From Syntrophomonadaceae bacterium (GTDB lineage Bacteria; Bacillota; Syntrophomonadia; Syntrophomonadales; Syntrophomonadaceae): 24,000 nt of DNA. The position numbers and the translations under genes were made by a program. Positions within the stretch are counted from its first letter, which is position 1. Every line of letters begins with the position of its first letter. A model generated the notes under the pieces. That model was not told where the DNA came from and did not search any database. It saw nothing but the letters and a program-made list of their open reading frames with translations. This document shows, piece by piece, positions 3,099 through 23,700 of this stretch. Where the stretch lies: contig CAXXWF010000001.1 of assembly GCA_963665865.2 (NCBI GenBank), forward strand, positions 3,299,077 to 3,323,076, given 5' to 3'.

Positions 3099-3130
3099 GA
3101 TTAATAAAATAGAATAAGATGTTTTATCGT

Positions 3131-3154
3131 AGGCGCCTGAGAGGGCGCTTTTTT
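3131..3154 (+). terminator. Rho-independent terminator of the sigma/anti-sigma operon
   Basis: GCGCC (3133-3137), a 6-nt loop, GGCGC (3144-3148), then TTTTTT. It lies 33 nt after the stop codon. Confidence 0.55.
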
Positions 3155-3194
3155 GTGAGCTATATATATCATCAACCGCACTCCCCTGGCTTCC

Positions 3195-6100
3195 CTACTG
3201 GGTATAAATCTGGTCCAGAATCGCGGCGGTTTCGGCGCGGGTAACGGGTCGGTTTGGATCCAGGTATTCACCGGTGAATATGTTTAATAGGCCCCGTTCA
3301 TACATCTGGGAAAAGGCATCCCGAGCCCAGGGTGGTACAGAAGCTAAATCTTTATACGGTAACCATTTCTGCTTCGGTTTGGTACCTGACAGATGGAAAA
3401 TAATAACTGCCAGTTCACTGCGAGTTACAGCCCGATCTGGCTGGAAACTTCCATCCGGATAACCGCTGATTATGCCTTGCTCCCGGGCTGCCAGAGCCGC
3501 TTCCAAAGCCCACCAGGGAATGTCGCTGGAATCACTGAAATTGGACTGTTCGTTCATGACGGTCAGGGTCAGATACTGCATATTGGCAATCATTGCTAAT
3601 AATTCCGCCCGGCTCAGGGATTGATCAGGATGGTAGCTGCCATCACCATATCCTGCGATTATTTTCCTACTGGCCAAATCTTTAATATATTTTTCTGCCC
3701 AATTACCGCTTATATCAGTAAAGCTGCCCACAGCTGGCACAGTTGGATAAGTGTTGATTTCTGTATCACTTACTTTCATCCCGCCGCTGCGCGTATCCAA
3801 TGCCACCACCAGCAAGTCGGTTTCGTTCTCCAACAGGTGATATAAACGGCTGAATCGCCCGTCGGTAACTATGATGCGCTCGTGACTGCCATCTTTGCGG
3901 TACAGGTATAAGCGATCCGCTGTAGTATAGCCCTGAAGAACTAAGACCCCGTTTAAAGCACTAGCCGTTATTTCTAAATCGGGTGCCGCCTTTTGATCCG
4001 AGCTCACATTTGCTTCTACTCCTGCTAATACCTGCGGCCAGGGTGACGGAGATAGTAAGGTAGTGAGGTCAACTTTCTCGCCCGCCCTTAGATCCTCAGC
4101 ATTTATACAATAACCGCCTTTGCTGATGCGGGTAGAACTGCTGTAGGTATATTCAGATCCGTCGCTCATTACCAGAGTCTTAGTATCCGAATTAACTGAA
4201 GCCAAGGTTTTTACCGTTTCTTTATCAATTTCAGCCAAATCAATCCGCCATGCCTGTTTTTCAGTCGGATCGCTAATAATCCGCACCCAGCTGCCGGAGA
4301 TAATAGCTGCGGAATCCAACGGAATCCCATACCCGAACACCTCAGTCTGCTTATCAAAGGTATAATCTTGGGATTGGTTGTTAGAGTCTATTATGTAGAG
4401 ACTTTTTTGCTGGGTACTAGCATATACCACCCGCCCGTAACTTACATTACTAAAGGCCTGCAGTTGAATGATGCTAGGTCGATCCGGCATCAGCAGGGCT
4501 CTAACCCAAATCCCGGCTTTTAGTGCTTCTAGCGATACCTCTTGTCTGTCCATATATATAGTGGTACCAGGAAAAAGCTGGTAGGTTTGACCCGTATCCA
4601 GGGTGATCTTCTCCTCTTTAGTATTAACTGAAGCTACTTGCCCTATGGCCATGGGTCTTTCCAGCATTAAAGATTGCACCACCTGGGTTTGGGGAGAGAC
4701 CTGCACGGTAACTTTGGTTCCGGGCAAAAGTTTTTCTAAATCATTTTGTTCTGCCGAACCATAAGGAGTATCCCGAGCTGTGCCGTCCAGTATTTTATCC
4801 TGATAGGATATAGCCGCCCAAGGGGCCAATTTGTATGTATTTGGGTCGCGCAGGAGCTTAACCTCTCGGGTTGCAGGGTTAACCTCAGCGATGAAACCAC
4901 TTATTTCCTGGTTGTTTGCCTCCAGCTTCCACAGGGTTTGGAGAGCCGGGTTTATGCTGGCCTGCAACTCCGATCCGGGTGGAATATCGATGATACTGGC
5001 TGCCGGCTGGCCGTTCACCATAATACCACCAGCAGCAGCCCGAGGATCCAGATAATAGCCTCCTTCTCTCACTCCGGTATTCATTTCTAACAGAAGATCC
5101 CCCTCGGCGGTAGGCAGGGCTTGTATCCCTCCGGTTTTCCAGGTTTGCCCGAAAACATAAGCACTATTGGAAGTCAGGTAAATGTCGCTGCCCGCCTGGA
5201 TACTAGCTGTTGAATTGACCAGAACGCCGTCCACTACCTGATGCAGCTTAAAGGTTTTCAGGTTGACCTTTGTGCCATCCAGCAGAAGTATTTCATTTTT
5301 ATCAATATTCTCAACCACCTGCTTTTTAAGAGTCTGACCATACACCAGGGCAAAATCCTGCCCACCGGACGAGCCTATTTTGTTGGCCCGAATTTTTATA
5401 GTGTACTCGCCGGTTTCGGATAATGGGATAGACACCTGTTCAACGTTATTGCGATCATCGGCCTTGCCCTGACTGGTAAAATCGTTACCATAATAGCTTT
5501 TTCCGCTCGGGTCCTGCACGATCAGGTCGAGATTGTTAACCAGGGCTGAACCGGATCCCAAAATAGCCGGAGGGTCTACCCAGGCCAGGGTTACTTTCAC
5601 CGGCATGGAAGTATCAGTTACCTGCAGCTTATATTCCTTAGTTTCTCCCTCTTCAAGTCTGGTTTTTTCATCAGCTATATTAAAGGTACCCTCCTGTAGT
5701 GCCAGAGCTGTACCGGCCAAATCCAGTATACCAAAGCCCTCTTCCGCAGTATTACCGGTCTGGGGCTGAGCCCCATTTATTAATAAGGCCTTAAGTAACG
5801 CTGATGAAGGATTGGGCATATTCAGCTGAGTGTTCAACTGTTCCCGCAGCAAGGCCAAGGCTCCGCCGGTTACTGCGGCTGCCATGCTGCTGCCCCCCAT
5901 ACGGGTATAGAGCGAATTGGCGGTATAATTACTCTCTACCAGACTGGAGCAGGCAGAAATTAGGGCTGAACCCGGAGCCAGCAGATCGGGTTTGATACGA
6001 CCATCCTGAGTCGGCCCCCGGCTGGAAGAGTCTGCTGGCTGGTCGGCGAAGCGAGCCTCGGGATCAAAGGCAGGACGCGGAACCTGGCTGGAACCTACCA

Positions 6101-6776
6101 CCAGCGCATTCTTGCTGTTGGCCTCAGAAGTGAGCGTACTATTACTGGGGCCACTATTGCCCGCTCCGAAGACTGGCAGGAAATCCGGATACCGATATAC
6201 AAAACTATCGATCTGGGATGAACTGGTATTATAAGTGTTAGTACCACTGCCCCAACCATCTACATGAATTCTTACTCCGGCGGAATAGGCAGGGCGGAAG
6301 AGGTCATTTAGAAGATCGGGGATTTTTAGGTTATTGTTTTGATCTAATAGGGCTTGAAAATATAGGCTGGCACCAGGAGCAATGCCCTCGTATTTCCCTT
6401 GCGAAGCCTTACCGGTGCCGGCAATGGTCGCAGCCATGAAAGTGCCGTGTCCGTTGGGATCATCAGCAATTGTGCGATCGGTGTAAGATTTTAGCATAAC
6501 TACCTTGGGCATGTCTCCAGTTTCACTTTGCAGATCAGGATGAATATCACTCATGCTGCCCTTGTCCAGACCGCTGTCTGCAATGCCCACAATTTGACCC
6601 TTACCGCTCAGTCCGGTGGGGGTAATTATGTTTCTGACCAGCAGGGGGCTGGCGCCGATGATGTCAGCAGAACGGTCGTTGGCTAAGATAGGATCTATAA
6701 AACATTGAAAAAATAAGCACAAACAAAGCAACAGTGATAAGTAATCCCGCCACCGTTTTTTATATATGTATTTCAT
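3195..6776 (-). CDS. Secreted S8 (subtilisin-family) serine peptidase with three C-terminal SLH cell-wall-anchoring domains
   Basis: 1193 aa with an N-terminal signal/TM segment. Catalytic triad contexts are GIADSGLD (Asp), HGTFMAATIAG (His) and GGSSMAAAVTGGALALL (Ser). The C-terminus has three SLH-like repeats (FTDISGNWAEKYIKDLASRKIIAGYGDGSYHPDQSLSRAELLAM; FSDSSDIPWWALEAALAAREQGIISGYPDGSFQPDRAVTRSELAV; YKDLASVPPWARDAFSQMYERGLL...). Confidence 0.9.
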   Translation of the reverse strand: MKYIYKKRWRDYLSLLLCLCLFFQCFIDPILANDRSADIIGASPLLVRNIITPTGLSGKGQIVGIADSGLDKGSMSDIHPDLQSETGDMPKVVMLKSYTDRTIADDPNGHGTFMAATIAGTGKASQGKYEGIAPGASLYFQALLDQNNNLKIPDLLNDLFRPAYSAGVRIHVDGWGSGTNTYNTSSSQIDSFVYRYPDFLPVFGAGNSGPSNSTLTSEANSKNALVVGSSQVPRPAFDPEARFADQPADSSSRGPTQDGRIKPDLLAPGSALISACSSLVESNYTANSLYTRMGGSSMAAAVTGGALALLREQLNTQLNMPNPSSALLKALLINGAQPQTGNTAEEGFGILDLAGTALALQEGTFNIADEKTRLEEGETKEYKLQVTDTSMPVKVTLAWVDPPAILGSGSALVNNLDLIVQDPSGKSYYGNDFTSQGKADDRNNVEQVSIPLSETGEYTIKIRANKIGSSGGQDFALVYGQTLKKQVVENIDKNEILLLDGTKVNLKTFKLHQVVDGVLVNSTASIQAGSDIYLTSNSAYVFGQTWKTGGIQALPTAEGDLLLEMNTGVREGGYYLDPRAAAGGIMVNGQPAASIIDIPPGSELQASINPALQTLWKLEANNQEISGFIAEVNPATREVKLLRDPNTYKLAPWAAISYQDKILDGTARDTPYGSAEQNDLEKLLPGTKVTVQVSPQTQVVQSLMLERPMAIGQVASVNTKEEKITLDTGQTYQLFPGTTIYMDRQEVSLEALKAGIWVRALLMPDRPSIIQLQAFSNVSYGRVVYASTQQKSLYIIDSNNQSQDYTFDKQTEVFGYGIPLDSAAIISGSWVRIISDPTEKQAWRIDLAEIDKETVKTLASVNSDTKTLVMSDGSEYTYSSSTRISKGGYCINAEDLRAGEKVDLTTLLSPSPWPQVLAGVEANVSSDQKAAPDLEITASALNGVLVLQGYTTADRLYLYRKDGSHERIIVTDGRFSRLYHLLENETDLLVVALDTRSGGMKVSDTEINTYPTVPAVGSFTDISGNWAEKYIKDLASRKIIAGYGDGSYHPDQSLSRAELLAMIANMQYLTLTVMNEQSNFSDSSDIPWWALEAALAAREQGIISGYPDGSFQPDRAVTRSELAVIIFHLSGTKPKQKWLPYKDLASVPPWARDAFSQMYERGLLNIFTGEYLDPNRPVTRAETAAILDQIYTQ

Positions 6777-6815
6777 CTATGAGTACTCCTACTATATATT
6801 ATTTATCATGCCTCG

Positions 6816-8732
6816 CTAAGGCCTAACATTATTCAAATTAACATTCGCGTTCATATACGCGCCTATGGCGTCGGCTATCGCCTGGGAGGCCAGATCTCTG
6901 AACTGCTGCTGCTGCAGCAGCGCTTCCTCGGTCGGATTGCTGATAAAAGCCAGTTCAACCAGGGCTGATGGCATCACAGATTCCCTCAGTACCGACAGGT
7001 TACTCTGTTTTACGCCGCGGTCTGCCCGTCCCAAACTGGCCACCAGAGACTGTTGTAGTCTAAGTGCCAGATTGTAGCGTTCATCCTTTTGCAAATAGAG
7101 CCCCGGATTTTCCAGCGGAAAATAGCAGTAAGTCTCAGTTCCATAAGGGGCGGAACTGGTACTGGCATTGCAATGTACTGAAACAAATACAGACGCATTA
7201 TAAAGGTTAGCGATGTTGCTTCTATCCATCAGGGACACATTCGTATCGTCTGAGCGTGTATATACCACTTTAATACCCTTAGCGGTAAGTAACTGACCAG
7301 CTTGCAGAACGACAGGCAGATTCACATCTTTTTCGGCCAGGTAAGCACCACTGGCTCCCGGGTCGCTCCCCCCATGCCCGGCATCGAGTACCACAATGGG
7401 CACACGGGGCTGGATTTCACTCTGATCAATAAATAATATATTTAGCCCTGTACCGTCACCATTAGGACCTATCGAAAACTTGGCTGCTTTAGTAGTAGTT
7501 ATGGTCAAAACTGTACCAGTCTGTCCTTGAGGCTGTAAAACCATGCTGCTGATGAGAGGACTGTTGAAATTGTAATTGGCTGACGCCGAACCAACCAGAG
7601 CATTGGTAAACACTACCTCCAGACGATTGCTGGCAGTAGAGGATGTATATTGCATAGAGGTAACTGTACTTATAGTGATATTTTCACCACTGCTGCCAAA
7701 GGTCTTGCGGCTCACGTCATAAATATAGTTGGGGATAATTAAGACCTCTCTTTTCCCGTCATTCTCGGTTGCGGTTGTATACTGCACCCCGCTGGGAAGC
7801 TGTATGTTCACTACGGCGCTGTCGCCCTGGTTGCTGCCCGAGGCGTTAAGCACGGCTGCCCCCAGGTATTCCTGCAGGCTGCTGGTGCCTTGCATCTGCC
7901 GGTTGGCAAACACGTAGCTGACCTGGTTCGTAGTTTTATTGATAGTCTTGTCCAGCTTAACCGCTGATTCCATCATTATACGCACCCCGTCGGCGGTTCG
8001 CTGAGAAGAGAGAGTTACCCCCTCCAATACTTGCACGGGTAAAGGGTTAGGGTCCACGGCGGCGGCGGGGCTCTTCATATTAACTGTATAAGCGGCCTCA
8101 TCCCAGGTTACCGTGCCGCCCAGGGCTTCCCCTATAAAACGCAGGGGAGCCAGAGTGCGGTCGTTGACAGTCTTAGCTGGAACATCCAGGGGCCATGCCT
8201 GGCCATTAACGGTTGGAGAAGTGGAACCTATGGTCAATACCACCGTGGTGCTGCCGCGGGTCGCGGTAACCGTTTGGGTGGCATTGTTCCAATCCACCTG
8301 GGCCCCCATAGCCTCAAAAATAGCCCGCAGGGGAACCAGCGTGCGACCGTTTTCGACAATAGGCGGGACTTCAAACTGCATCTGTTGCCCGTCCAGTATT
8401 ACTATTGGCGTCTTGGCCGCAGAGGGGGTGGTTGGTTTCGCTTGGGCAACGCTCAACAGAGATTGGTTTACCCAGCCCACTGTTTTCCCATACTGAATCT
8501 GATACCATTCCCCGCTCTGGGAGATAATGGTCAATGTGGTGTTTTTATAGAGGGTGCCGGTTACGGCATACTGAGTCCCCGCCCCGGCGCGGATATTGAC
8601 GACGCTGCCGGTCACTACTCCAGTAGCCGCGGCAGCTTGATCAGGTAAAGGCGAGAATAGAAGAGATATGTATAGAGAGACCGTTACCGCTAATAGAAAC
8701 AATAAATTCTTCGTTTTCATCATTTTGAACAT
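6816..8732 (-). CDS. N-acetylmuramoyl-L-alanine amidase (Amidase_3) with N-terminal SH3-like and copper-amine-oxidase-N-like stalk domains
   Basis: 638 aa with a signal peptide. SH3b-like segment GVVTGSVVNIRAGAGTQYAVTGTLYKNTTLTIISQSGEWYQIQYGKTVGWV. Two stalk repeats of the type NGRTLVPLRAIFEAMGAQVDWNNATQTVT. C-terminal Amidase_3 core IVVLDAGHGGSDPGASG...VSVHCNA...VELAFISNPTEE. It sits 39 nt upstream of the S8 gene on the same strand, so the two are probably one operon. Confidence 0.88.
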   Translation of the reverse strand: MFKMMKTKNLLFLLAVTVSLYISLLFSPLPDQAAAATGVVTGSVVNIRAGAGTQYAVTGTLYKNTTLTIISQSGEWYQIQYGKTVGWVNQSLLSVAQAKPTTPSAAKTPIVILDGQQMQFEVPPIVENGRTLVPLRAIFEAMGAQVDWNNATQTVTATRGSTTVVLTIGSTSPTVNGQAWPLDVPAKTVNDRTLAPLRFIGEALGGTVTWDEAAYTVNMKSPAAAVDPNPLPVQVLEGVTLSSQRTADGVRIMMESAVKLDKTINKTTNQVSYVFANRQMQGTSSLQEYLGAAVLNASGSNQGDSAVVNIQLPSGVQYTTATENDGKREVLIIPNYIYDVSRKTFGSSGENITISTVTSMQYTSSTASNRLEVVFTNALVGSASANYNFNSPLISSMVLQPQGQTGTVLTITTTKAAKFSIGPNGDGTGLNILFIDQSEIQPRVPIVVLDAGHGGSDPGASGAYLAEKDVNLPVVLQAGQLLTAKGIKVVYTRSDDTNVSLMDRSNIANLYNASVFVSVHCNASTSSAPYGTETYCYFPLENPGLYLQKDERYNLALRLQQSLVASLGRADRGVKQSNLSVLRESVMPSALVELAFISNPTEEALLQQQQFRDLASQAIADAIGAYMNANVNLNNVRP

Positions 8733-14076: not shown

Positions 14077-14106
14077 TTTACATTGAATTAGAGAGTATAG
14101 TATAAT
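14077..14106 (+). promoter_or_regulatory. Sigma-A-type promoter driving the c-di-GMP-I riboswitch transcript
   Basis: TTTACA (14077-14082), 18 nt, TATAAT (14101-14106). The aptamer begins about 25 nt downstream. Confidence 0.55.
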
Positions 14107-14130
14107 AATGGAAAATATAATTGTATAAAT

Positions 14131-14228
14131 GGCCTTGAAGGGCAAACTTGTCGAAAGATAAGGACGCAAAACCAAAGGGTCTAAGTCGTTTTTGACGATA
14201 TGACAGCCGGGTTGCTAGAGATCATGCC
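14131..14228 (+). promoter_or_regulatory. c-di-GMP-I (GEMM-I) riboswitch aptamer
   Basis: The sequence is GAAGGGCAAACUUGUCGAAAGAUAAGGACGCAAAACCAAAGGGUCUAAGUCG...CGAUAUGACAGCCGGGUUGC. It carries the class-I signatures GGGCAAAC, a GAAA-capped hairpin (UUGUC/GAUAA) and GGACGCAAA(A/G)CC. It also has a tetraloop-receptor-like UCUAAG...UAUGA and GCCGGGUUGC. These align by eye with the V. cholerae Vc2 aptamer as I recall it. Confidence 0.85.
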
Positions 14229-14237
14229 TTAAGTAGG

Positions 14238-14285
14238 AATCTCCTTAAAAGGTATGGTTATGAGATTTTAAGGAGGTTTTTTGTT
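14238..14285 (+). terminator. Expression-platform hairpin of the c-di-GMP-I riboswitch (terminator-like; also sequesters the RBS)
   Basis: AAUCUCCUUAAAA (14238-14250) pairs with UUUUAAGGAGGUU (14266-14278): 13 bp including one G-U. UUUUGUUG follows. The right arm contains the AAGGAGG RBS of the GTG start at 14286. Confidence 0.6.
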
Positions 14286-14564
14286 GTGGATTTTAGCTGT
14301 ATTGTTCCCAGAATCATAAAGGAAAGTGTAGCCGTATTCAAGGACACAAGCATAGAAGAAATTAAGAATATTCTAATCTTAAAAGAAGAATTAATAGCAG
14401 TCGGGTATAATCCCAATGAGGTCAATTACATGATTGCAACCTTTAGTAATAACGTGGATATTGCTAAGCTTAATTCTAAACAGCTTAAGAAAACTGAAGA
14501 ACGATTAAAAGAACAGCTGTCTATCGCCAGAGAATGTATAGCATTCATCCGAGACCCCCAATAG
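14286..14564 (+). CDS. Hypothetical 92-aa protein, the only cargo of the c-di-GMP-I riboswitch
   Basis: GTG start 9 nt after AAGGAGG. Predicted to be soluble, helical and charged (…LKKTEERLKEQLSIARECIAFIRDPQ). I recognise no family. A terminator overlaps its stop codon. Confidence 0.6.
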   Translation: MDFSCIVPRIIKESVAVFKDTSIEEIKNILILKEELIAVGYNPNEVNYMIATFSNNVDIAKLNSKQLKKTEERLKEQLSIARECIAFIRDPQ

Positions 14565-14579
14565 GGGCCTCATTTTTTG
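14551..14579 (+). terminator. Rho-independent terminator after the 92-aa ORF
   Basis: GAGACCCC, loop caata, GGGGCCTC (one A-C mismatch), followed by ATTTTTT. Confidence 0.5.
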
Positions 14580-14604
14580 CCTTCTTACGGAAAATAACCC
14601 GTTC

Positions 14605-14838
14605 TTATTTAATGATTATATTCTGAATAGATTCAGCTTTGGCCGTTCCCGTTGCGTTGTACTTGGTCAGTACAAAGCGGTATGTACCTTTAGTGCTGCC
14701 CGCAGGAAGTGTAAGATTTGCTGCTCCTCCCGAAATGCTCACCGGTTGGTTCGCCTGGCCAGAAACATTTGCATAGGAGATGCCATATTTTTGTTGGAGG
14801 GTGGATTGCACGTTCCCGGTACCCAGAATTTGAATGGG
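14605..14838 (-). other. Out-of-frame C-terminal continuation (about 77 codons) of the GLUG-repeat gene
   Basis: The frame of track ORF 14605..14811 stays open upstream to 14868. From 14838 it reads PIQILGTGNVQSTLQQKYGISYANVSGQ...TYRFVLTKYNATGTAKAESIQNIIIK. This joins naturally to ...AAAVSVPIT of the 1010-aa ORF if the C4 run (plus-strand GGGG, 14836-14839) is read as C5. The annotated tail of the 1010-aa ORF (PFKFWVPGTCNPPSNKNMASPMQMFLARRTNR) looks like out-of-frame sequence. Confidence 0.7.
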
Positions 14839-17771
14839 GTTATGGGAACTGACACAGCTGCAGCTGAGGCATCAAAAAACCGTGTTCCGGCAACGGCCCG
14901 GATACCGTATTCTGGAGGGGCTGCAAGTGTAATGGACGCAGTCCCTGCTGCCAGCAGATTATCGTTTCTAGGGTTCGCAGGATAAGAACTGGCGTAGGCT
15001 TTGACCTGCAAAGTGTAGGTGCCGGCTGTCAATGGAACCGCACAGCCGCTCATGTCAATACTTATGGTAGTTCCGCTGAGGACATTGGCCGTCAGAAATG
15101 TAGAGGGATAACTGCCGGTAATGACGGTGCCGTTGACTATTGTACCAATAGGCAGATTAACCGTAGATCCCGACTGCTGCAGATAAATTTCATAGAAATA
15201 GGACTTGCCATCAGTCTTGTAATCATAACCCATGGCGGTTGTTTTGGATAAAGCCGCAGTGCAGGAATCTGTTCCACTGGTAGTAGTAAGAGAATAAGCA
15301 TTCTTCCCGGCAACGGTCACCGTTGGCACCGTGCCGGTAGCAGTTCCTCCCGCAATCAGGAATTCGATATTGCTGGTCCCGGCCGCAATCCCGGCCGCTG
15401 TGCGCGAAAAGTCAAAAATGAATACATATTGTTTGGTTGAGCCTGCCGCTGCGGTCTGGCTGGGATAGTTTGTGGCAGTGGTCCCCATCTGTATGAATTG
15501 ATTCAGCATTATGCTGCCGGTCAGATCCGCAGTCAGATTCTTATAGTAATATACTCCGTCCACCAGCATGATAACTGTAGTATGGGCAGGTAGAGTTACT
15601 GCCGTGGTTCCCTGTTTGAGTCCGATAGTCTGGGTTTCAAGGGCACAGGTTGCGATGTAAGTTCCGGAATAAGAAACTGAAAATGCGCTGTCGGCAGTGA
15701 TAGCCGCCGAAGTGGCAGCTCCTTCCAAAGATGTGGGAGTATAATATTTACCTCCTGCTATTTTAGTACTTGCAAACTGCACGACCGGAGGCACAGATGT
15801 TCCAATCACGGGAGGATCACTTGAACCTCCACCGACTTGAATCCAAACGTTGTTTCCTTCAGGATTGGGGATATTCGTCCCAATGCCATTTAATAAATCC
15901 TTGATTACCGTCCAAGGTATTTCACCAACCGGCACAGCCCCATCATTGGTTAATTTGTCACCGGTTCCGGTTCCCTGCGCAGCATTGTCATAATAGTTGT
16001 TCCAGGCATTCGTTGGGGATAACGTTCCCTGATATTGACCGATAATGCCGCCTACATAATTATTATGTCCGGTTATCTCGCCGGTACTTAAATTGTTACT
16101 TATGGTTGACCCAGCTTGAGACCAATCGCCGCCGCCTGCTATGCCGCCTACAGCACTGCTCCCATGAATATCTCCAGAATTAGAGTTATTGCTTATGGTA
16201 TTATTGCTGCCGGCATATCCGACCACACCACCTATATTTTGTTGCCATCCGTCCATATTCACGCTGTTTACATTACCGGTGTTGCTGCATACTTTTACCG
16301 TACCGTCTGTATATCCAGCCACACCGCCCACGCAAGATTTCCCCGTTATATTTCCGGAAGAAGCGCAATTACTGATTTCGCTGTTGGTACCGGCGTATCC
16401 GGCCACACCACCTACATATTCTTGCCAATCTTTCACATTCTCGCTGTTTACATTCCCACTATTGGTGCAAACCGTTATCTCACCGTTCGTATATCCAGCC
16501 ACGCCGCCCACATACTGTTTTCCCGTTATAGTTCCGGAAGAAGATGAATTACTGACTTCGCTGCCCGAATAAGCATAGCCGACCACACCACCCACATAAT
16601 TCTCGCCGCCGGTTACCGTACACGTGACCTCACACCCTGTTACGGCCGCGCTAATCGTGGGCAGGACCGGTGTTTGGTTGTCGATCTTGTATATGCTTCC
16701 AACCACCCCGCCCACATAAAACTTTCCCGTTATAGTTCCGGCAACCGTGCAATTGGCCATTGTACTGTCAGCACCGGCATATCCAGCTATTCCGCCTACA
16801 TAATTCTCGGTTCCGGTTAAGGTTAAGCTTACGTCACACCCGGTTATGTTCCCTTCTGTGTATCCAGCCACACCGGCCACGTAAAATTTTCCAGTTACAA
16901 TTCCTGAAACCGTACAGTTCTCTATTTCACTGTTAGGGCCGGCATATCCCGCCATACCGCCTACATAGTTTTCAGTTACGGTTACTGTAGAACTTAGGTG
17001 ACACCCTTTTATCTTCCCGTTGGTATAGGCAGCCACACCGCCCACGTAAAATTTTCCAGTTACAATTCCTGAAACCGTGCAGTTTTCTATGTCACTGTTC
17101 GTACCGCCATATCCAGCCACACCTCCAGCATAATTCTCGACTGCGGTTACGGGTAAACTTACGCTGCAACCGGTTATGCTCCCGTCGGTGTAGCCGACTA
17201 TCCCTCCCGCATAATATCCTCCTCGCACACTGCCTGAAACACTTAAATTTTTAATCACACTTCCATTGGCAGCATATGCAAACAATCCACAGTAGGAATG
17301 ATAATTTGTTTCATTAATATACAGACCGATGATTTTTTTGCTGTTGCCATCGAAATTGCCCTGGAAGGTTTTGGTTGAGTCGCTGCCAATGCAGGTAAAC
17401 TTTCTTGGTGAAGAGGACACAAAGGTTCCGTTCGTGTTCATGTTATTAAGTAGAATGTCATCTGTAAGCTTAAAATACGTATTTTGATAGTTTAAGCCGC
17501 CGTTAACTCTTTGAGCCAAATAGGCAAGTTCCTTACCGTTGCTGATTAAATAGGGATCCGCCTGAGTTCCTGTTCCACCGGCATAGGCTGTTGACACGGA
17601 ACCATCCCATAGAGCGCTGGTGGCATCAACATACCCAGGCATTGAAAAAATAAATGGCAGCAACATTGCGCATAGCGATACGATAGCCATGCACCGCCTT
17701 AGTCTGAGGCGGCGGCGTTTTTGCCTAAGTATATTTCTGATTTTGGTTTCGAAGTTAGAAGGTTGGATCAT
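14739..17771 (-). CDS. Large secreted GLUG-motif repeat protein (putative adhesin/cargo), frameshifted near the 3' end
   Basis: 1010 aa as called. N-terminal signal/TM RRCMAIVSLCAMLLPFIFSMPGYVDA. The segment GTGTQADPYLISNGKELAYLAQRVNGGLNYQNTYFKLTDDILL is typical of N-termini of GLUG-containing proteins. At least 12 repeats of the type ENYVGGVAGYAG.NSEI.NC.VSG.ITGK.YVGGVAGYT.G follow. The C-terminal third is beta-rich. Its ATG overlaps the upstream stop (ATGA at 17768-17771). No LPXTG or SLH anchor is visible. Confidence 0.8.
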   Translation of the reverse strand: MIQPSNFETKIRNILRQKRRRLRLRRCMAIVSLCAMLLPFIFSMPGYVDATSALWDGSVSTAYAGGTGTQADPYLISNGKELAYLAQRVNGGLNYQNTYFKLTDDILLNNMNTNGTFVSSSPRKFTCIGSDSTKTFQGNFDGNSKKIIGLYINETNYHSYCGLFAYAANGSVIKNLSVSGSVRGGYYAGGIVGYTDGSITGCSVSLPVTAVENYAGGVAGYGGTNSDIENCTVSGIVTGKFYVGGVAAYTNGKIKGCHLSSTVTVTENYVGGMAGYAGPNSEIENCTVSGIVTGKFYVAGVAGYTEGNITGCDVSLTLTGTENYVGGIAGYAGADSTMANCTVAGTITGKFYVGGVVGSIYKIDNQTPVLPTISAAVTGCEVTCTVTGGENYVGGVVGYAYSGSEVSNSSSSGTITGKQYVGGVAGYTNGEITVCTNSGNVNSENVKDWQEYVGGVAGYAGTNSEISNCASSGNITGKSCVGGVAGYTDGTVKVCSNTGNVNSVNMDGWQQNIGGVVGYAGSNNTISNNSNSGDIHGSSAVGGIAGGGDWSQAGSTISNNLSTGEITGHNNYVGGIIGQYQGTLSPTNAWNNYYDNAAQGTGTGDKLTNDGAVPVGEIPWTVIKDLLNGIGTNIPNPEGNNVWIQVGGGSSDPPVIGTSVPPVVQFASTKIAGGKYYTPTSLEGAATSAAITADSAFSVSYSGTYIATCALETQTIGLKQGTTAVTLPAHTTVIMLVDGVYYYKNLTADLTGSIMLNQFIQMGTTATNYPSQTAAAGSTKQYVFIFDFSRTAAGIAAGTSNIEFLIAGGTATGTVPTVTVAGKNAYSLTTTSGTDSCTAALSKTTAMGYDYKTDGKSYFYEIYLQQSGSTVNLPIGTIVNGTVITGSYPSTFLTANVLSGTTISIDMSGCAVPLTAGTYTLQVKAYASSYPANPRNDNLLAAGTASITLAAPPEYGIRAVAGTRFFDASAAAVSVPITPFKFWVPGTCNPPSNKNMASPMQMFLARRTNR
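16094..17264. repeat. Intragenic tandem DNA repeats encoding the GLUG units (periods of about 165 and 180 bp)
   Basis: 16878-16934 and 17043-17099 differ at 3 of 57 nt (CACGTAAAATTTTCCAGTTACAATTCCTGAAACCGT.CAGTT.TCTAT.TCACTGTT), a 165-bp offset. 16261-16320 and 16441-16500 are clearly related at a 180-bp offset. Confidence 0.8.
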
Positions 17772-18574
17772 GTCACTGTAACTCCGGTATAGTTTGCCGC
17801 AGGGCTATCCTTGAAAAAGATCAGCTCGTAAACTGCCGCCTTATTAACAGTAGTCATTATGGTTCTGGTGGTAAGGTTGATGCTGTTGGCGTTTATCACT
17901 ATCGGGTTGGTCATGTCAGGGGATGCTCCAATCGGCCAGCTGATGGTAACCGCTCTGGTCAGTGCAGCGCTGCTGTCGTTCTCCAAGGTTACGGTCAGCC
18001 TGGCCAGGGGTGCACCTGCATTGGAATCGATTGCATAAGCAACCGCCGGCTTTATAACAAAATTCCCTTTCAGGGTTTTTGCGTAGGGTGAGGTGGAGAC
18101 CGCAGTCACCGTAACCGACAAAGGACTATTTTTGTCAGCAGGTGCTGGAATCGTAAGATTTATGGTGGCTTCATTGCCCGGCGAGCCGCCTGCTGCGATG
18201 GTTCCGCTGGCACTGCCGCCTGAGGCAGTTGCAGTTACAGAATAGGATATGCTGCTGTCCGATATGTTCAGCGTACTGTCATAATTCCTTAGTTTGAAGG
18301 TTATAGTCGAGGCAGACTGCAAGTCATTGCAGAGATAATACGTGGGTATAGCTGATAAATTCGACCCCAGCAAATCGCTGGTGAAATAAAATTCAGCATC
18401 TGCGGTGGCGGTGTAGTTGTTCATAACCTGATCGTAAATATAGCTGGCCAAAACTGCCCCCGGATAAGAAATAATTAAAATAAAGGCTAGGATGAATACA
18501 GACATCTGCCTTTTCGTTCGTTTTTGATGCAAATTATTATATATGGGTGTAAACTTATTTTTCATCGTTAACAC
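17768..18574 (-). CDS. Secreted/membrane-anchored beta-rich protein of the fibre operon (possible minor subunit)
   Basis: 268 aa. N-terminal TM VFILAFILIISYPGAVLASYIY, followed by ...ATADAEFYFTSDLL, which resembles the FxFTD/AYFSD part of SipW-cognate signals. The protein is Ser/Thr/Ala-rich. RBS GAGAAGGTG. It starts 9 nt after the upstream gene. Confidence 0.55.
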   Translation of the reverse strand: MLTMKNKFTPIYNNLHQKRTKRQMSVFILAFILIISYPGAVLASYIYDQVMNNYTATADAEFYFTSDLLGSNLSAIPTYYLCNDLQSASTITFKLRNYDSTLNISDSSISYSVTATASGGSASGTIAAGGSPGNEATINLTIPAPADKNSPLSVTVTAVSTSPYAKTLKGNFVIKPAVAYAIDSNAGAPLARLTVTLENDSSAALTRAVTISWPIGASPDMTNPIVINANSINLTTRTIMTTVNKAAVYELIFFKDSPAANYTGVTVT

Positions 18575-18583
18575 CTTCTCTGT

Positions 18584-19123
18584 TTATAATTGAACGGCGC
18601 GCAGCCGAAGCTGTAAGTAATCTATTTCATTTTTGTATGTATAACTGTTAATGTTTGCCGGCCAAGCCATGGTAAGTATAAAAGAGCTGGTGGTTGCTAT
18701 ATTCGCAGTAAATTCCTGAGCCGCACTAACATATTGATAACTAGCAGGATGAGTGAGAGCAACCGGGGTACCTGCTTTGGTCAGAGAGTACTGCAGAGGA
18801 AGGTTGCCAGTAGTGTCCAGCTCCAGGGTATAGCTTTGACTATATCCACTTGCATTTCCACTGCCATCCTGGTTATTTACCGAGATGGTAATGGTTTTAA
18901 TGTCCCCGGGTTTCATACCCTCAATATTAATCGTACTGGCCTGCTGGTTCATAATCCAGGTGGAAAACACAACGGCAGGTATGGCAGTATTTTCTGGTCC
19001 CGTATTTTGAATTACACTGCTGAAACGAGAAAATGAAATACCAGTAATTATAAGGGATACCAAGAAGAGGTAGATTAAATACATATGCCATTTGGCCGTC
19101 TTTTTTTCGACAGGAGCTTGCAT
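18584..19123 (-). CDS. Small TasA/camelysin-like paralogue (179 aa)
   Basis: TM YLIYLFLVSLIITGISFSRFSSV. Motifs occur in the same order as the other paralogues: MKPGDIKTITISVNN, LPLQYSL, and a terminal strand LQLRLRAVQL. RBS AGGAAAGGGG. Confidence 0.6.
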   Translation of the reverse strand: MQAPVEKKTAKWHMYLIYLFLVSLIITGISFSRFSSVIQNTGPENTAIPAVVFSTWIMNQQASTINIEGMKPGDIKTITISVNNQDGSGNASGYSQSYTLELDTTGNLPLQYSLTKAGTPVALTHPASYQYVSAAQEFTANIATTSSFILTMAWPANINSYTYKNEIDYLQLRLRAVQL

Positions 19124-19156
19124 TTTCTAACCCCTTTCCTGTGGCTGATGCTAATG

Positions 19157-20134
19157 TTAATTAGGTTGCATCTGCTCTCCGCTTATACGGAAAATTACCT
19201 GGACTAATGGTTTGGTATTTAAAGCATGGGCGGCAAAGGTATCATAATCATCATAGGCTCTTAAAAGAGAAGTATTACAGGCCTCCATAGCAGCATTCGC
19301 AGCCGCAGCCAGGCTGTTATAATAGCCAAAATCACCATCCGGCCATGTGCCATCCGGCTGCGGACTGCCATGCACGGTCAAATACGTATCGACTGCATTG
19401 AAAGCGGCTATACTCTGATCCTGCAAACCACCCGGAGCGTAATATACATTATAAGCTGCCTGGTAATAAGGAAGATACTTGCCACTGCCTATATTGGTAT
19501 CAGGATTCGGTGTTACCGTAGCAACGCCCGTGTCATTGATATAGAATGAGGTATTCCATTGCCATTGAATTGTGACGGTAACCTCATCAGTGCTGCCTGG
19601 TGAAAATGTCGGCTTTCCATCTGTTAAATCAAAAATGCTAAAATAGCCTTCCCCATCGCGGCTGGTATCCTGCAGCCTGAACCAATTGGTCTGAAATACA
19701 ATGGGTGGGCTGTCGGCTGCGCCCGAGTTCATGGCAGCACTCACTTTGAAAATAAAAGGTGCGTAAACATCTTTACCGCTATGAGTTGCAATAACTGCCG
19801 TATTCCCCGCCGAAGTAAGCTTAATTAATTCATTCGCATTCATTTCAATATTATAGGCAACGGCTACATCAGACCTGCCGCTCTTCAAGGAGAAGCTTTT
19901 CTCTCCCGAGTCCATTGGAGCAACAGTCTTGCCGTCAAACAAATTAAAGGTAAACCCTTTGTTATAATACTGCGTATCGGTTTCACCTTTGGCACTGAAA
20001 TTCCACTTAGCAATCAGGGCTGGGTCCGAGCCACTATATTCACTAGTATAACTTGCCGAAGTAGATGGGAAAATGGAAAAGCTAACCAGTGCCGCAACTA
20101 TCAGCAGTTGTAAACCTATTTTGAAAAGCTTCAC
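19157..20134 (-). CDS. TasA/camelysin-like paralogue (325 aa, with an extra insertion)
   Basis: GTG start and signal peptide MKLFKIGLQLLIVAALVSFSIFPSTSA. The post-signal segment SYTSEYSGSDPALIAKWNFSAKGE is closely related to the 217-aa protein (KYTSVYAGQDTALVAKWSLAIKEG). Other motifs: VAPMDSGEKSFSL, TVTIQWQWN, and the terminal VQVIFRISGEQ. Confidence 0.65.
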   Translation of the reverse strand: MKLFKIGLQLLIVAALVSFSIFPSTSASYTSEYSGSDPALIAKWNFSAKGETDTQYYNKGFTFNLFDGKTVAPMDSGEKSFSLKSGRSDVAVAYNIEMNANELIKLTSAGNTAVIATHSGKDVYAPFIFKVSAAMNSGAADSPPIVFQTNWFRLQDTSRDGEGYFSIFDLTDGKPTFSPGSTDEVTVTIQWQWNTSFYINDTGVATVTPNPDTNIGSGKYLPYYQAAYNVYYAPGGLQDQSIAAFNAVDTYLTVHGSPQPDGTWPDGDFGYYNSLAAAANAAMEACNTSLLRAYDDYDTFAAHALNTKPLVQVIFRISGEQMQPN

Positions 20135-20221: not shown

Positions 20222-20743
20222 TTAGTTTCTCTTGCGCTTTATTTCCTGATAAAGCTCTTCACCGTAAATGCAAAGGACTGCTATGATTAGCAACACTATC
20301 ATGCCAGTCGGGTTTTTAATAAATAAGATGGCCAACCCTATTTTCGGGATCCTAAAAAGCACTTTGCCTATAAATTGTTCAGCTGCCACTGTATCATCGG
20401 CAACATTGTTATTATCACCCTTAAGGATAAAACCGCCATTTTCTTCCCCAACAATGCGATGCGTGTAAGTCGTAGTGCCGACCATATAAGTAGCAATATC
20501 GCCCAGCTTATACTTTTGGGGAGCTTGCTCACGGATTACCACCACATCCCCGGGCATTATCGCTGGCTGCATAGAGCCGGACATAACAATGAGCGGTGCC
20601 ATACCCAAAAACTTGGGCACGGGGTTGTGGGTTACTGCCTTATTGATACCCAGGTAGAGATTACTTAATATCACCAGACCCAAAAATCCGACCAACCCAT
20701 ACTTCAAAAAGTTGATCAGTATTTTTTTCCACTTGTTTTGCAA
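20222..20743 (-). CDS. Signal peptidase I, SipW/ER-archaeal type (second copy, short form)
   Basis: 173 aa, TTG start with AAGGATGGG upstream. N-terminal TM, Ser box MSGSMQPAIMPGDVVVIRE, His box YTHRIVG, and LKGDNNNVADD. A C-terminal TM is followed by only a short tail (EELYQEIKRKRN). Confidence 0.85.
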   Translation of the reverse strand: MQNKWKKILINFLKYGLVGFLGLVILSNLYLGINKAVTHNPVPKFLGMAPLIVMSGSMQPAIMPGDVVVIREQAPQKYKLGDIATYMVGTTTYTHRIVGEENGGFILKGDNNNVADDTVAAEQFIGKVLFRIPKIGLAILFIKNPTGMIVLLIIAVLCIYGEELYQEIKRKRN

Positions 20744-20757
20744 GAAATCCCATCCTT

Positions 20758-21975
20758 CTATTTTCTCTGGGCCGAAACTATGATTGAAAGCGTACAGACT
20801 ACTTCATCAGCATGATTAGCGAAGCTATTATCGTTGATGCCGCCATCATCCCAGAACCATTCCAGGGTATATCCAGTCTTCATCGAATCGCTCATCACTA
20901 ACGGTACTGAGGAATCAGCAGTTACCGCCCGGATCTCTGCGGTTGTATGCCAGTTGCTGTCGCCATTTACATACGTATTGGTATTGTTATTCTGCAAACG
21001 ATATTTCATAGGGATGTTTAACGAGTTGTTGGTTTCTACCAGATCGATATCGTAATTAACCGCAAAGGGGTTGGCAGTATTATTCACCGTAAATTTATAC
21101 ACCCCGGTCATACCTGGAGCAATATGTTTGCCGCTCCCGAAAATGTTGATGTCGGTAGCTGGACTGGGAGCTTGATGGAAGTCATTACTATCACCCGTAC
21201 TATATACGGTAAGTGCCCAAGCTTGTGGCTGAGGGGGGATTCCACCACCGCCGCCACCGCCTCCCCCAAGAATATCAGGAGGAGGGTTGGGGATAACTGG
21301 CTGGGCTGGGGGCTCCGGAGTCAAAGGAATGCCAGGCTGCGGTTGCTCCCCCGGGTTATTACGTTCCAGCACATTAACCTGAGGACCTATAGTCAGGTGA
21401 CCATTAGGGAGTCCTGACCCGTCCTGTTCTATTTCCAGGACTACTTCCAGGGTTTTTACATCTACCCCTATCTCCAGTACGAAAGTATCCACCGATACTT
21501 GCACCAGAAGCGTATCGGCAATCTCCAGGTTGCGGTTTATGGTCACCTTGCACGAGGCTAACACTTGCCCGCTCTGGCTCAGCACGCTTATCGTGTGATC
21601 CCCATCCTCGACATTTTGAAATATAAAGTAGCCGTCACGGTCGGTATAGGTAGTCCTCGGCGCACTGCGCAGCTCCACCAGCCCAAAGGCGTATGGCGTA
21701 CCATCTTTGTAGACGACCCGGCCTTTAATAGTTATCTGCTTCTCAACCGGCACGATAACCTTATGAGGAGGGTAAATAAAGTTTCTAATTCTGTCCAGGA
21801 AGGGTACTCCTCGGTCTCCATCCCCAACTATGGGAAGGGTGGAAGATATGATAAAATCCGTCTGCCCGGTGCTGCTATCGCGGATTACACCGTAAACAGA
21901 CACGGCTATATATACAACAATCATGGTTATAATGGCAAGCAGTATCAGGTTCTTGCGGTTTTGCGCAATGTCCAC
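20758..21975 (-). CDS. Membrane-anchored chimeric protein: N-terminal TM, CarboxypepD_reg-like beta-sandwich, Pro/Gly linker and C-terminal TasA-like domain
   Basis: 405 aa, GTG start with GGAGGTG upstream. TM LILLAIITMIVVYIAVSVYGVI. ITIKGRVVYKDGTPYAFGLVELRSAPRTTYTDRDGYFIFQNVEDGDHTISV is carboxypeptidase-regulatory-like. The linker reads PGEQPQPGIPLTPEPPAQPVIPNPPPDILGGGGGGGGGIPPQPQ. The C-terminal domain has HIAPGMTGVYKFTVNN, IPMKYRL, YTLEWFWDDGG and LSIIVSAQ, in the same order as the 217-aa paralogue. Confidence 0.65.
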   Translation of the reverse strand: MDIAQNRKNLILLAIITMIVVYIAVSVYGVIRDSSTGQTDFIISSTLPIVGDGDRGVPFLDRIRNFIYPPHKVIVPVEKQITIKGRVVYKDGTPYAFGLVELRSAPRTTYTDRDGYFIFQNVEDGDHTISVLSQSGQVLASCKVTINRNLEIADTLLVQVSVDTFVLEIGVDVKTLEVVLEIEQDGSGLPNGHLTIGPQVNVLERNNPGEQPQPGIPLTPEPPAQPVIPNPPPDILGGGGGGGGGIPPQPQAWALTVYSTGDSNDFHQAPSPATDINIFGSGKHIAPGMTGVYKFTVNNTANPFAVNYDIDLVETNNSLNIPMKYRLQNNNTNTYVNGDSNWHTTAEIRAVTADSSVPLVMSDSMKTGYTLEWFWDDGGINDNSFANHADEVVCTLSIIVSAQRK

Positions 21976-22068: not shown

Positions 22069-22722
22069 TTATATTGTTGCTGGTGCTACCTGTGTGGCTG
22101 TAACCTTAATCAGCAGATTATAGGTTGTGCGAGAACCTCCACCCGCGGAAGCAACGCCAAGTGCAGTATCGGTTGTATCGGTTGCGCCAGCTGTTGCAGT
22201 AGTTCCATCAAAAGCCCATCTCCAGTAAACGGTATGACTAGTGTTTCCGCCTGCTTCGGCAAGCTGAATACCCAGGCCGTTTAATGCAGTTTTCAATGCG
22301 GCATCACCATTCAATATAACGGCTGTCCCATCCGTAAAAGGCTTATCAATGCTGTACTCCATAGGGACATTAGCGCCTGTTTTAGTAATATCAAAGGTAA
22401 TATCCGCCGCAACGTCACTGTTGTTAGTTAGATTCAGAACAAAGTTGTCACTAATTCCAGGAGCAATGATTTTTGGAGTAGTTGTTAGGATATTTGTATT
22501 AAATGCGTGTGAAAATAAGTCAAGGTTCGCTACAGCCGGATCAATGGCAAAATCATGGGTACCCTCTTTAATAGCCAAGCTCCATTTGGCCACCAGGGCC
22601 GTATCCTGCCCAGCGTACACACTGGTGTACTTAGCGAAGGTTCCCGAAAGCATAACTGTTGAAATCAGACAGACTACTAAAAGCAGTCCCCCAAGTCTAA
22701 AAGTCTTTCCTGTAATATTCAT
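22069..22722 (-). CDS. TasA/BsaA/camelysin-like secreted protein (217 aa), candidate major fibre subunit
   Basis: The signal peptide ends in SGTFAKYTS, in register with the SipW-cognate signal pattern GTxAxF(S/T)D (TasA: GGGTWAAFND). Motifs: IIAPGISDNFVLNLTNN, VPMEYSI, HTVYWRWAFDG, and the terminal strand YNLLIKVTATQV (compare TasA ...FSFEATQ). It is the first structural gene after sipW and is followed by strong hairpins. RBS AAGGGGGA. Confidence 0.7.
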   Translation of the reverse strand: MNITGKTFRLGGLLLVVCLISTVMLSGTFAKYTSVYAGQDTALVAKWSLAIKEGTHDFAIDPAVANLDLFSHAFNTNILTTTPKIIAPGISDNFVLNLTNNSDVAADITFDITKTGANVPMEYSIDKPFTDGTAVILNGDAALKTALNGLGIQLAEAGGNTSHTVYWRWAFDGTTATAGATDTTDTALGVASAGGGSRTTYNLLIKVTATQVAPATI

Positions 22723-22862: not shown

Positions 22863-23519
22863 TTAGCTTGGGAAGCTATCTTCCGTTGCTTCAGACTTGG
22901 TATTTTCCTTTTGGGCAGCTTTTAAAGCTGCCAGCTCAGCCTCGAGCTCGGCTTCACGACCGCCTTTTCTCTTACTGCGCCTATTGCGCGCTACCACATC
23001 ATAAACTATAAACAGGCAAAGCGGGGTTACCACAAATATCAGCATGCCTATAGGAGTCTGCAGGAACATGGCAAACCTGCCTACGCCGCCAGCCCGCCCC
23101 AGGTATATGCCCTCTAATGTATCAGCCTTTACCGCGGCGGCGTCAGCACCGGTATTGGCATCCCCTTTGGTTAAGAATGATATGTTGCCATTATCATTTA
23201 ATATATCGGTTACTCTATGTGTTATTACAGTATTCTTATCGGATCTAAAAGTGATAATATCGTTCTTAGCAACCTTATCTGCAGTAATCTCCTTGGTCAG
23301 CACAATATCTCCGGTCAAGATGGTTGGCTCCATTGAGCCAGATAAGACAATAAAGGGCTTATAGCCCATAAAGTCTGGTACCTTATCCGGGTAGAGGTAA
23401 GACTTAACAATCATGGTTCCATTAACGACAATAATCAAGGTTAGAAAAATACATACTGCAATACCAACGATGTTTAAAGTCTTTCTAAAAGTTGTGCTTT
23501 CGGATGTCCCATCTGCCAT
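22863..23519 (-). CDS. Signal peptidase I, SipW/ER-archaeal type (first copy, long form with charged C-terminal tail)
   Basis: 218 aa with GGAGGCGG RBS. N-terminal TM, Ser box LSGSMEPTILTGDIVLTKE, His box ITHRVTDI, and TKGDANTGAD. After a C-terminal TM comes a 45-aa cytoplasmic tail, RNRRSKRKGGREAELEAELAALKAAQKENTKSEATEDSFPS. Confidence 0.88.
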   Translation of the reverse strand: MADGTSESTTFRKTLNIVGIAVCIFLTLIIVVNGTMIVKSYLYPDKVPDFMGYKPFIVLSGSMEPTILTGDIVLTKEITADKVAKNDIITFRSDKNTVITHRVTDILNDNGNISFLTKGDANTGADAAAVKADTLEGIYLGRAGGVGRFAMFLQTPIGMLIFVVTPLCLFIVYDVVARNRRSKRKGGREAELEAELAALKAAQKENTKSEATEDSFPS

Positions 23520-23552
23520 TTAGTCCGCCTCCATATTTTGCAAATTAAGCCC

Positions 23553-23579
23553 AAAAAGCCACCACATAAATGTAGTGGC
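23553..23579 (-). terminator. Intrinsic terminator forming the expression platform of the c-di-GMP-II riboswitch
   Basis: On the minus strand: GCCACUACA (23579-23571), loop UUUA, UGUGGUGGC (23566-23558), then UUUUU (23557-23553). The stem is 9 bp with one G-U. The left arm includes the CCAC that forms the aptamer P1 3' strand. Confidence 0.75.
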
Positions 23580-23643
23580 CGGTTGCGTCTCAAGCTACTG
23601 TAGGTCAGACGCCCAATTTACGCCCACAGATCATCGCTTCCAC
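23575..23643 (-). promoter_or_regulatory. c-di-GMP-II riboswitch aptamer in the operon leader
   Basis: The minus strand reads GUGGAAGCGAUGAUCUGUGGGCGUAAAUUGGGCGUCUGACCUACAGUAGCUUGAGACGCAACCGGCCAC. I recall the C. acetobutylicum class-II aptamer as ...GGAAACAAUGAUGAAUGGGUUUAAAUUGGGCACUUGAC...GUGCAACCGACCGUGC. The two share GGAA.C.AUGAU, UGGG..UAAAUUGGGC, a closing helix (GCGUCU/AGACGC here) and GCAACCG.CC. Confidence 0.82.
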
Positions 23644-23671
23644 ATTAATATCCTATTATTCTACCTAATAT

Positions 23672-23700
23672 ATAATGCCTTGCTTTGCAAAATATGTCAA
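23672..23700 (-). promoter_or_regulatory. Sigma-A-type promoter of the sipW/TasA-like/GLUG operon
   Basis: On the minus strand: TTGACA (23700-23695), 17 nt, CATTAT (23677-23672). Overlapping TATATA/TATATT alternatives exist. The aptamer starts about 25 nt downstream. Confidence 0.55.

Follow-up and report, generated by a model that had tools for sequence, protein, structure and literature searches.

A divergent class II c-di-GMP riboswitch lineage and its predicted ON control of an uncharacterised SipW-associated operon in Syntrophomonadaceae

The 5' leader of an eight-gene operon in a Syntrophomonadaceae bacterium (assembly GCA_963665865.2, contig CAXXWF010000001.1) contains an RNA element that is accepted here as an aptamer of the class II type for cyclic diguanylate (c-di-GMP), belonging to a divergent lineage and scoring below the threshold of its Rfam family. 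Together with an overlapping intrinsic terminator, this aptamer forms a switch that, judging from its sequence and predicted folds, probably binds c-di-GMP and activates transcriptional read-through into the operon. The DNA analysed was a stretch of 24,000 nucleotides (nt) covering positions 3,299,077-3,323,076 of the contig, referred to below as the window; coordinates are window positions unless a related locus is named, and both the element and the operon lie on the minus strand.

An earlier note on this DNA had proposed a class II riboswitch with an overlapping terminator, acting as an ON switch ahead of a TasA-type fibre operon. The aptamer assignment is supported by a full-length match to the Rfam family, by a fold backed by covariation and by a set of related copies, and the ON logic by folding of the alternative states, by an overlap between aptamer and terminator that is kept in 15 copies and by a mirrored arrangement in the class I leaders of orthologous operons. 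The TasA assignment was not supported. That class II c-di-GMP ON switches stand ahead of surface-structure genes is already established, and the switch itself changes little in this picture; the interest comes mainly from a lineage that Rfam misses, from a swap of aptamer class ahead of the same genes and from the uncharacterised cluster under control.

The class II aptamer and its lineage

Read on the minus strand, the leader runs GUGG-A-AGC-GAUGAU-CUGUGGGC-GUAAAUUGGGCGUCUG-ACCUACAG-UA-GCU-UG-AGACGCAACCGG-CCAC and continues with UACA-UUUA-UGUGGUGGCU-UUUUU. Its helices P1, P2 and P3 are nested in the order and spacing of the family. In P1, GUGG (23640-23643) pairs with CCAC (23575-23578), the strand that the earlier note had named as the 3' side of this helix; in P2, AGC (23636-23638) pairs with GCU (23593-23595); and in P3, CUGUGGG (23623-23629) pairs with CCUACAG (23598-23604), the 3' strands of P2 and P3 being placed both by the Rfam alignment and by the pairing across 15 copies described below. 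GAUGAU (23630-23635), the 5' side of a kink-turn-like internal loop, fits the consensus C-ga-UGA. The P3 loop holds a pseudoknot strand (23607-23615) made up of UGG (23615-23613) and GCGUCU (23612-23607), which pair with CCG (23582-23580) and AGACGC (23590-23585), respectively. These two 3' strands and the GCAACCGGCC core are contained in the 3' tail AGACGCAACCGGCC (23577-23590), which corresponds to the most conserved block of the Rfam consensus. The three conserved motifs that the earlier note had quoted were all recovered, GGAAGCGAUGAU at 23641-23630, UGGGCGUAAAUUGGGC at 23626-23611 and GCAACCGGCC at 23586-23577, and the core nucleotides GGA, C, UGA, UGGGC and GCAACCG.CC are all present.

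The Rfam model of the c-di-GMP-II aptamer, RF01786, matches the leader over its full length (model positions 1-84 of 84) at 23568-23650. The match scores 44.4 bits; its E-value is 1.3e-8 when the 401-nt region is searched and 7.6e-7 when both strands of the whole window are searched against all 4227 families. The gathering score of RF01786, which is an operational and not a structural criterion, is 53.5 bits; a default Rfam scan at this threshold does not report the element, and only a permissive scan shows RF01786. A score below this threshold, which the earlier note had named as grounds for refuting its proposal, was thus formally obtained; the class II match is nevertheless significant from end to end.

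The loss of score comes mainly from outer P1 and from covarying pseudoknot pairs that the model cannot score. P1 comprises 4 base pairs (bp) here and 11 in the RF01786 model, the outer seven model pairs being absent, and all but one of the non-canonical pairs flagged in the alignment lie in outer P1. The P3 loop carries GCGU in place of the consensus GCAC, and the 3' tail ACGC in place of GUGC; the two segments are complementary to each other in either version, and the pseudoknot departs from the consensus GCAC/GUGC by double changes at two pairs. Because a covariance model cannot represent a pseudoknot, these doubly changed pairs are counted as four mismatches.

A class II aptamer from Clostridium acetobutylicum has been crystallised (PDB 3Q3Z). 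The class II architecture, with its kink-turn and pseudoknot, has been described (PMC9495366). The element shares with the RF01786 consensus the order P1-P2-P3, the blocks GGA..C..UGA, UAAAUUGGGC and GCAACCG.CC and the pseudoknot between the P3 loop and the 3' tail. Apart from the shortened P1 and the substituted pseudoknot pairs, it differs from the consensus by one deleted nucleotide and a G to U change on the 3' side of the kink-turn.

Relatives of the element were collected through the protein encoded by the second gene of the operon, a secreted protein of 217 amino acids (aa). Its homologues were aligned and 79 related loci (numbered with the prefix L) were fetched, and the contigs of the closest homologues were also looked up. 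A lineage covariance model built from six copies detected 15 full copies, located in the window and in L002, L011, L012, L013, L014, L080, L081 and L086. Their RF01786 scores are 58.8, 50.5, 50.1, 48.8, 47.8, 44.4, 43.2, 42.6, 41.3, 39.8, 39.3, 38.7, 38.4, 35.5 and 28.8 bits. Because 14 of the 15 fall below 53.5 bits, the low score appears to be a property of the lineage rather than the sign of a spurious match. The single copy above the cut-off (58.8 bits) belongs to L014, a Syntrophomonadaceae contig, where a second copy scoring 50.5 bits stands just upstream. Two relatives from metagenomes, L080 and L081, show synteny with the window. A strict regular expression for the core, applied to the 79 loci, found L014 only, together with two chance matches, and a scan of one metagenome with the core pattern added L086 as the only new independent copy; its other hits were L081, repeated three times, and two stretches of GC-rich coding DNA that match by chance.

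Base pairs were counted on the 15-copy alignment for P1, P2, P3 and both pseudoknot helices. Standard pairs occupy 97.5% of the cells, versus 28-52% after a shift of the 3' partners by 1-3 columns. P1 is paired throughout (100%), P2 in 97.8% and P3 in 95% of cells, and the pseudoknot helices in 97.8% (GCGUCU/AGACGC) and 100% (UGG/CCG). Two-sided changes are found at five pairs, namely two of the four P1 pairs and three of the eight P3 pairs, with P1 occurring as GUGG/CCAC, GCGG/CCGC and ACGG/CCGU. None of 500 shuffles reached the observed covariation score; given the kinship of the copies and an alignment that had been fitted to the model, these figures are supportive and are not probabilities, and the shuffle counts overstate independence.

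Taken over Syntrophomonadaceae, Desulfosporosinus and the relatives of the window, with scores of 28.8-58.8 bits, the lineage suggests that standard annotation under-counts c-di-GMP riboswitches in these anaerobes, and its members could join the Rfam seed alignment.

Several copies stand in tandem, each with its own terminator: two in L013 (113-419), two in L014 (3454-3754) and four in L012 (3888-4642), the last count being uncertain owing to a run of N between copies 2 and 3. Double and triple arrays of class I have been described, and no description of class II arrays was found in the literature searched. L002 also carries a half-copy (3313-3416) that has the appearance of a remnant of recombination: its aptamer 3' half and its terminator repeat those of L002:1206-1315 exactly, but its 5' half is unrelated. 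The copy in L086 (2565-2675, minus strand) is independent and precedes a gene for a repeat-rich secreted protein of 744 aa instead of sipW, which suggests that the regulon of the lineage reaches other putative surface proteins.

The terminator and the direction of control

The intrinsic terminator (23553-23580) is composed of the 5' arm GGCCACUACA, a UUUA loop and the 3' arm UGUGGUGGCU, followed by UUUUU at 23557-23553. Its hairpin (23580-23557) has nine standard pairs and a closing G-U pair, 10 bp in all, and folds with -16.7 kcal/mol (z = -5.2), a value attained by none of 200 shuffles. A simple terminator scan did not list the hairpin at 23580-23553, which was confirmed by folding. The 3' strand of P1 is part of the terminator 5' arm, as the earlier note had stated, and six of the ten nucleotides of this arm (23580-23575) belong to the pseudoknot and P1. 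In all 15 copies, a hairpin and U-run lie directly 3' of the aptamer, 88% paired, with a 5' arm that starts in the pocket and P1.

Alternative states of the leader were compared in silico. The terminator hairpin alone yields -15.1 kcal/mol and the combination of P2, P3 and terminator -24.5 kcal/mol, compared with -11.4 kcal/mol for the aptamer helices without the pseudoknot and about -7.9 kcal/mol for the main pseudoknot duplex. The minimum free energy structure of the unconstrained leader contains the terminator. When the bound state is imposed as a constraint (P1, P2, P3, pseudoknot and pocket), no terminator is possible and only hairpins of 3 and 5 bp are left.

Based on these folds, a simple mechanism would be expected. 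Without ligand, the very stable terminator would form and transcription would stop before sipW. Upon binding of c-di-GMP, P1 (GUGG/CCAC) and the pseudoknot (UGG/CCG, GCGUCU/AGACGC) would lock six of the ten nucleotides of the terminator 5' arm, excluding the terminator and allowing RNA polymerase to read into the eight-gene operon. Since the terminator is the default state and shares its 5' arm with P1 and the pseudoknot, the ligand-stabilised fold is predicted to give read-through, that is, an ON switch in vivo.

This direction agrees with published class II switches. All four class II riboswitches of Clostridioides difficile are ON switches by experiment (PMC6200980; PMC6366702; PMC11477304). 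The closest counterpart in predicted behaviour is C. difficile Cdi-2-4, located upstream of pilA1. Like Cdi-2-4, Cdi-2-3 and the other class II switches of adhesin genes, the element is a class II aptamer in a 5' leader; as in Cdi-2-4, termination without ligand and read-through with c-di-GMP are predicted, ahead of genes for a putative surface fibre or adhesin (PMC6200980, PMC6366702). Unlike Cdi-2-4, the present element precedes an uncharacterised operon and has a 4-bp P1, a GCGUCU/AGACGC pseudoknot in place of the consensus GCAC/GUGC, a non-consensus kink-turn and a score below the cut-off.

A promoter-like site, TTGACA-17 nt-CATTAT (23672-23700), is located about 28 nt upstream of P1 and matches the consensus at 10 of 12 positions; transcription would start at about 23665 on the minus strand. 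The site is identical in L080 and L081, both of which are close relatives of the window. The leaders of these two loci are otherwise nearly identical to that of the window, and the gap between aptamer and promoter-like site is longer by 55 nt. This additional segment (L080 3028-3084; absent from the window at about 23651-23652) holds a small hairpin, GCUAGUGUUUCCAACUAGC.

Orthologous operons, ligand and competing explanations

Candidatus Formimonas warabiya and Sporobacter termitidis share all eight genes in an unchanged order, and the order is also kept in Pelotomaculum (L001), with a second copy of the gene for the 217-aa protein. A c-di-GMP riboswitch is present upstream, on the strand of the operon, in 13 of the 17 closest loci. 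The leader is of class I in L001, L004, L005, L006, L007, L009, L016 and L017 and of class II in L002, L011, L012, L013 and L014. Class II aptamers stand directly upstream of sipW in the window, L080, L081, L002 and L013, and about 540 nt upstream of it in L012. The class I aptamers that head orthologous operons are canonical, with scores of 59-82 bits, and in all eight class I leaders the 5' arm of a terminator coincides with the 3' end of the aptamer, as in GACUGCCGAAA paired with UUUCGCGCAGUC and followed by U6.

Because the orthologous operons are headed by c-di-GMP riboswitches, the genomic context strongly supports c-di-GMP as the ligand of the class II element. Because the class I leaders show the same terminator overlap, the cluster would be under c-di-GMP ON control through either class of aptamer. 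The element thus resembles class I ON switches, such as Bc2 upstream of cap in Bacillus thuringiensis (PMC6366702), in its presumed ligand and in the ON logic of the terminator overlap, and differs from class I (GEMM-I) switches in its aptamer fold, which is unrelated (Rfam clan CL00126 for class I and CL00127 for class II).

It is tentatively proposed, at slightly less than even odds, that the eight genes form a conserved and undescribed system (two SipW-type peptidases, a GLUG-repeat protein and five secreted proteins that are beta-rich and paralogous) which builds a c-di-GMP-induced surface fibre or adhesin in anaerobic Firmicutes, syntrophs among them; that its leader has been swapped between unrelated aptamer classes while the ON wiring was kept; and that its class II lineage, with arrays of up to four copies, is almost wholly missed at the Rfam threshold. 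Such a swap would provide a clean case from nature in which one aptamer class has replaced another while the regulatory demand stayed constant.

Two further observations concern the class I loci. Tandem class I pairs occur further downstream in L001 and L006, the pair in L001 lying just before the gene for a 179-aa protein. L007 holds a class I aptamer and, after it, a copy for which the c-di-GMP-I-GGC variant family is the best match (65.8 bits).

Beyond the kinship of the 15 copies and the score of 44.4 bits, several features weigh against a c-di-GMP-responsive ON switch. P1 consists of only 4 bp and contributes -3.5 kcal/mol. Within the lineage, changes in the pseudoknot are one-sided only, and the terminator is without two-sided changes across the copies. 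In seven of the 15, it contains a G.G mismatch, in the copies where P1 went from U-A to C-G; since the terminator partner did not follow this change, selection is suggested to act on P1 first. Promoter-like sites occur in the region at chance level, with 19 found and 19.5 expected from shuffles. At the kink-turn, GAU-GA on the 5' strand agrees with the consensus; the 3' strand (23597-23596) has UA in place of the consensus GA and lacks one position, and in six relatives UAA replaces the highly conserved UGA. The deviation from the consensus is real, and a non-standard kink may form at this site.

These kink-turn changes, and lineage scores that descend from the sub-threshold value of the window to 28.8 bits, would fit a class II descendant that has ceased to respond to c-di-GMP, either by decay to a constitutive attenuator or by a shift of ligand of the kind seen in class I variants. 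Clan CL00127 includes variant families with altered conserved nucleotides, two of which (c-di-GMP-II-GAG and c-di-GMP-II-GCG) also match the element; both, however, are outscored by the canonical RF01786 model. The blocks GCAACCGGCC and UGGGC are invariant in 14 of the 15 copies while the helices change with compensation, a pattern expected of a maintained pocket and not of decay, and the canonical class I aptamers ahead of orthologous operons make c-di-GMP the expected signal. Loss or change of the ligand is therefore regarded as unlikely.

An aptamer that binds c-di-GMP could also have another outcome, acting as an OFF switch or on translation or RNA stability. Class I c-di-GMP riboswitches act in either direction, some of them by routes other than termination (PMC6366702), and one class II example acts on translation through a ribozyme (PMC11477304). 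In the present leader, however, no anti-terminator is evident that a ligand could disrupt, the only partner strand of the terminator is the 3' end of the aptamer, and the overlap between the two is retained in every copy. The Shine-Dalgarno sequence GGAGG (23532-23528), which precedes the ATG of the first gene (23519-23517; together 23517-23532), lies 20 nt past the U-run and has no visible pairing partner in the leader, and a translational mechanism was rejected on this ground. Any of these outcomes is considered improbable. A chance resemblance, in which a plain hairpin terminator or attenuator without a sensor happens to match below the curated threshold in a 121-nt leader whose overall folding energy is unremarkable (z = -1.36), is very unlikely in view of the full-length match at E = 7.6e-7, the 15 homologous copies with compensatory changes, one of them above threshold, and the recurrence of the element upstream of the same operon in relatives.

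The controlled genes and their surroundings

The operon begins with a gene for a SipW-type signal peptidase I of 218 aa (22863-23519), which matches TIGR02228 with 97.5 bits (cut-off 51.85) and scores 110 bits against the SipW model, below the equivalog cut-off of 190. It is followed by the gene for the 217-aa secreted protein, a member of an unannotated family whose signal peptide ends in SGTFAKYTS (22069-22722); by a gene for a 405-aa protein with a CarboxypepD_reg-like domain (20758-21975), found at the same position in relatives; and by a second signal peptidase of the SipW/archaeal type with 173 aa (20222-20743; TIGR02228, 85.1 bits; Peptidase_S24). Three genes for unannotated secreted proteins of 325, 179 and 268 aa come next (17768-20134); they match no family, and their order is kept in L001, L009, L017 and L080. 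The last gene (14739-17771), assigned by synteny and a Glug match (1e-37, six stretches), encodes a GLUG-repeat protein of 1010 aa. In L081, L082 and L083 (2068-3507), the closest metagenomic relatives, insertion of a transposase gene (DDE_Tnp_1) has split the first sipW gene; the riboswitch and the remaining operon are intact.

For the 217-aa family, 147 homologues were detected, all annotated as hypothetical and none with a Pfam domain. The AlphaFold2 model of this protein is beta-rich and partly confident (mean predicted local distance difference test score 73), with residues 27-77 unconfident. In several loci, tblastn connects the 325-aa protein with the 217-aa gene region, and short patterns shared among the secreted proteins were noticed by eye: ..A(K/S)YTS.., ..(A/K)PG....F...(N)N.. 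and a C-terminal ..A.Q (22069-22722, 19157-20134, 18584-19123 and 20758-21975). The unannotated secreted proteins encoded by the operon appear to be paralogues.

The TasA-type subunits envisaged by the earlier note found no backing in homology by Pfam, NCBIfam, a profile search of the PDB, Foldseek or hhalign. PF12389 (TasA/camelysin) matched neither the 217-aa protein nor 31 members of its family, even at E <= 1, and an NCBIfam scan of the operon proteins gave no support for TasA. A profile search of PDB sequences with the 217-aa family was empty. In a Foldseek comparison of the AlphaFold2 model with the PDB, no match reached E <= 1e-3 and TasA was absent among the 50 matches listed; the weak top matches were donor-strand pilins, FimA (E = 0.011) and the Sulfolobus 0406 filament (E = 0.1), and the low-confidence residues 27-77 of the model could correspond to a donor strand. 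For hhalign, a TasA family profile was prepared from a query 99% identical to B. subtilis TasA, with PF12389 carried by all profile hits. The alignment to this profile covered the signal peptide only (SGTFAKY with GGTWAAF, probability 2.7%), and that to a single TasA sequence gave no support. TasA-like short motifs recognised by eye (GTFAKY and GTWAAF; IAPG...NNS and LKPGD...NNGS; a C-terminal ATQ) were not significant. The identification of the 217-aa protein as TasA was rejected as unsupported across seven tests of sequence and structure. The SipW half of the comparison stands, with two dedicated SipW-type peptidases in the operon, and a supportable description of its products is SipW-associated secreted proteins, possibly fibre subunits.

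The operon resembles tapA-sipW-tasA of B. subtilis and sipW-bsaA of Clostridium perfringens in that a SipW-type peptidase is encoded together with secreted proteins, which in those two operons polymerise outside the cell (PMC7395162). Both are under the control of protein regulators, expression from PsipW depending on the two-component system BsaR/BsaS (PMC7395162). In contrast, the present operon has a riboswitch, two peptidases, a GLUG-repeat protein and no detectable homology to TasA. In the literature searched, no report was found of a riboswitch ahead of tapA-sipW-tasA or sipW-bsaA, and no link between a c-di-GMP riboswitch and a sipW-type operon was found there, most subscription papers being outside the search. 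The eight-gene cluster is unannotated and widespread, and its riboswitch gives a strong hint of a matrix or adhesion structure that is made when c-di-GMP is high; the operon most likely encodes a surface fibre or adhesin system under c-di-GMP induction. Among the open reading frames (ORFs) of the window that were scanned, none encodes a GGDEF, EAL or HD-GYP protein.

A second c-di-GMP riboswitch, a canonical one of class I (RF01051, 74.9 bits), is found on the plus strand at 14131-14219. It is preceded by a strong promoter-like sequence, TTTACA-18-TATAAT (14077-14106, plus strand; 11 of 12 matches), and followed by a long hairpin with U6, within which lies the Shine-Dalgarno sequence of an ORF of 92 aa (14286-14564). 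This ORF matches no family and has a terminator-like hairpin of its own. The folding of the class I element is compatible with either an ON or an OFF switch. The unit as a whole (14077-14580, plus strand) is convergent with the end of the sipW operon, and the cluster is thus flanked by both classes of c-di-GMP riboswitch.

The neighbouring genes at 1522-8732 have cell-envelope functions. An extracytoplasmic function (ECF) sigma factor is encoded there together with an anti-sigma factor of the zf-HC2 type; the other products are an S8 subtilase of 1193 aa that carries three SLH domains and an amidase containing SH3 and Cu_amine_oxidN1 domains.

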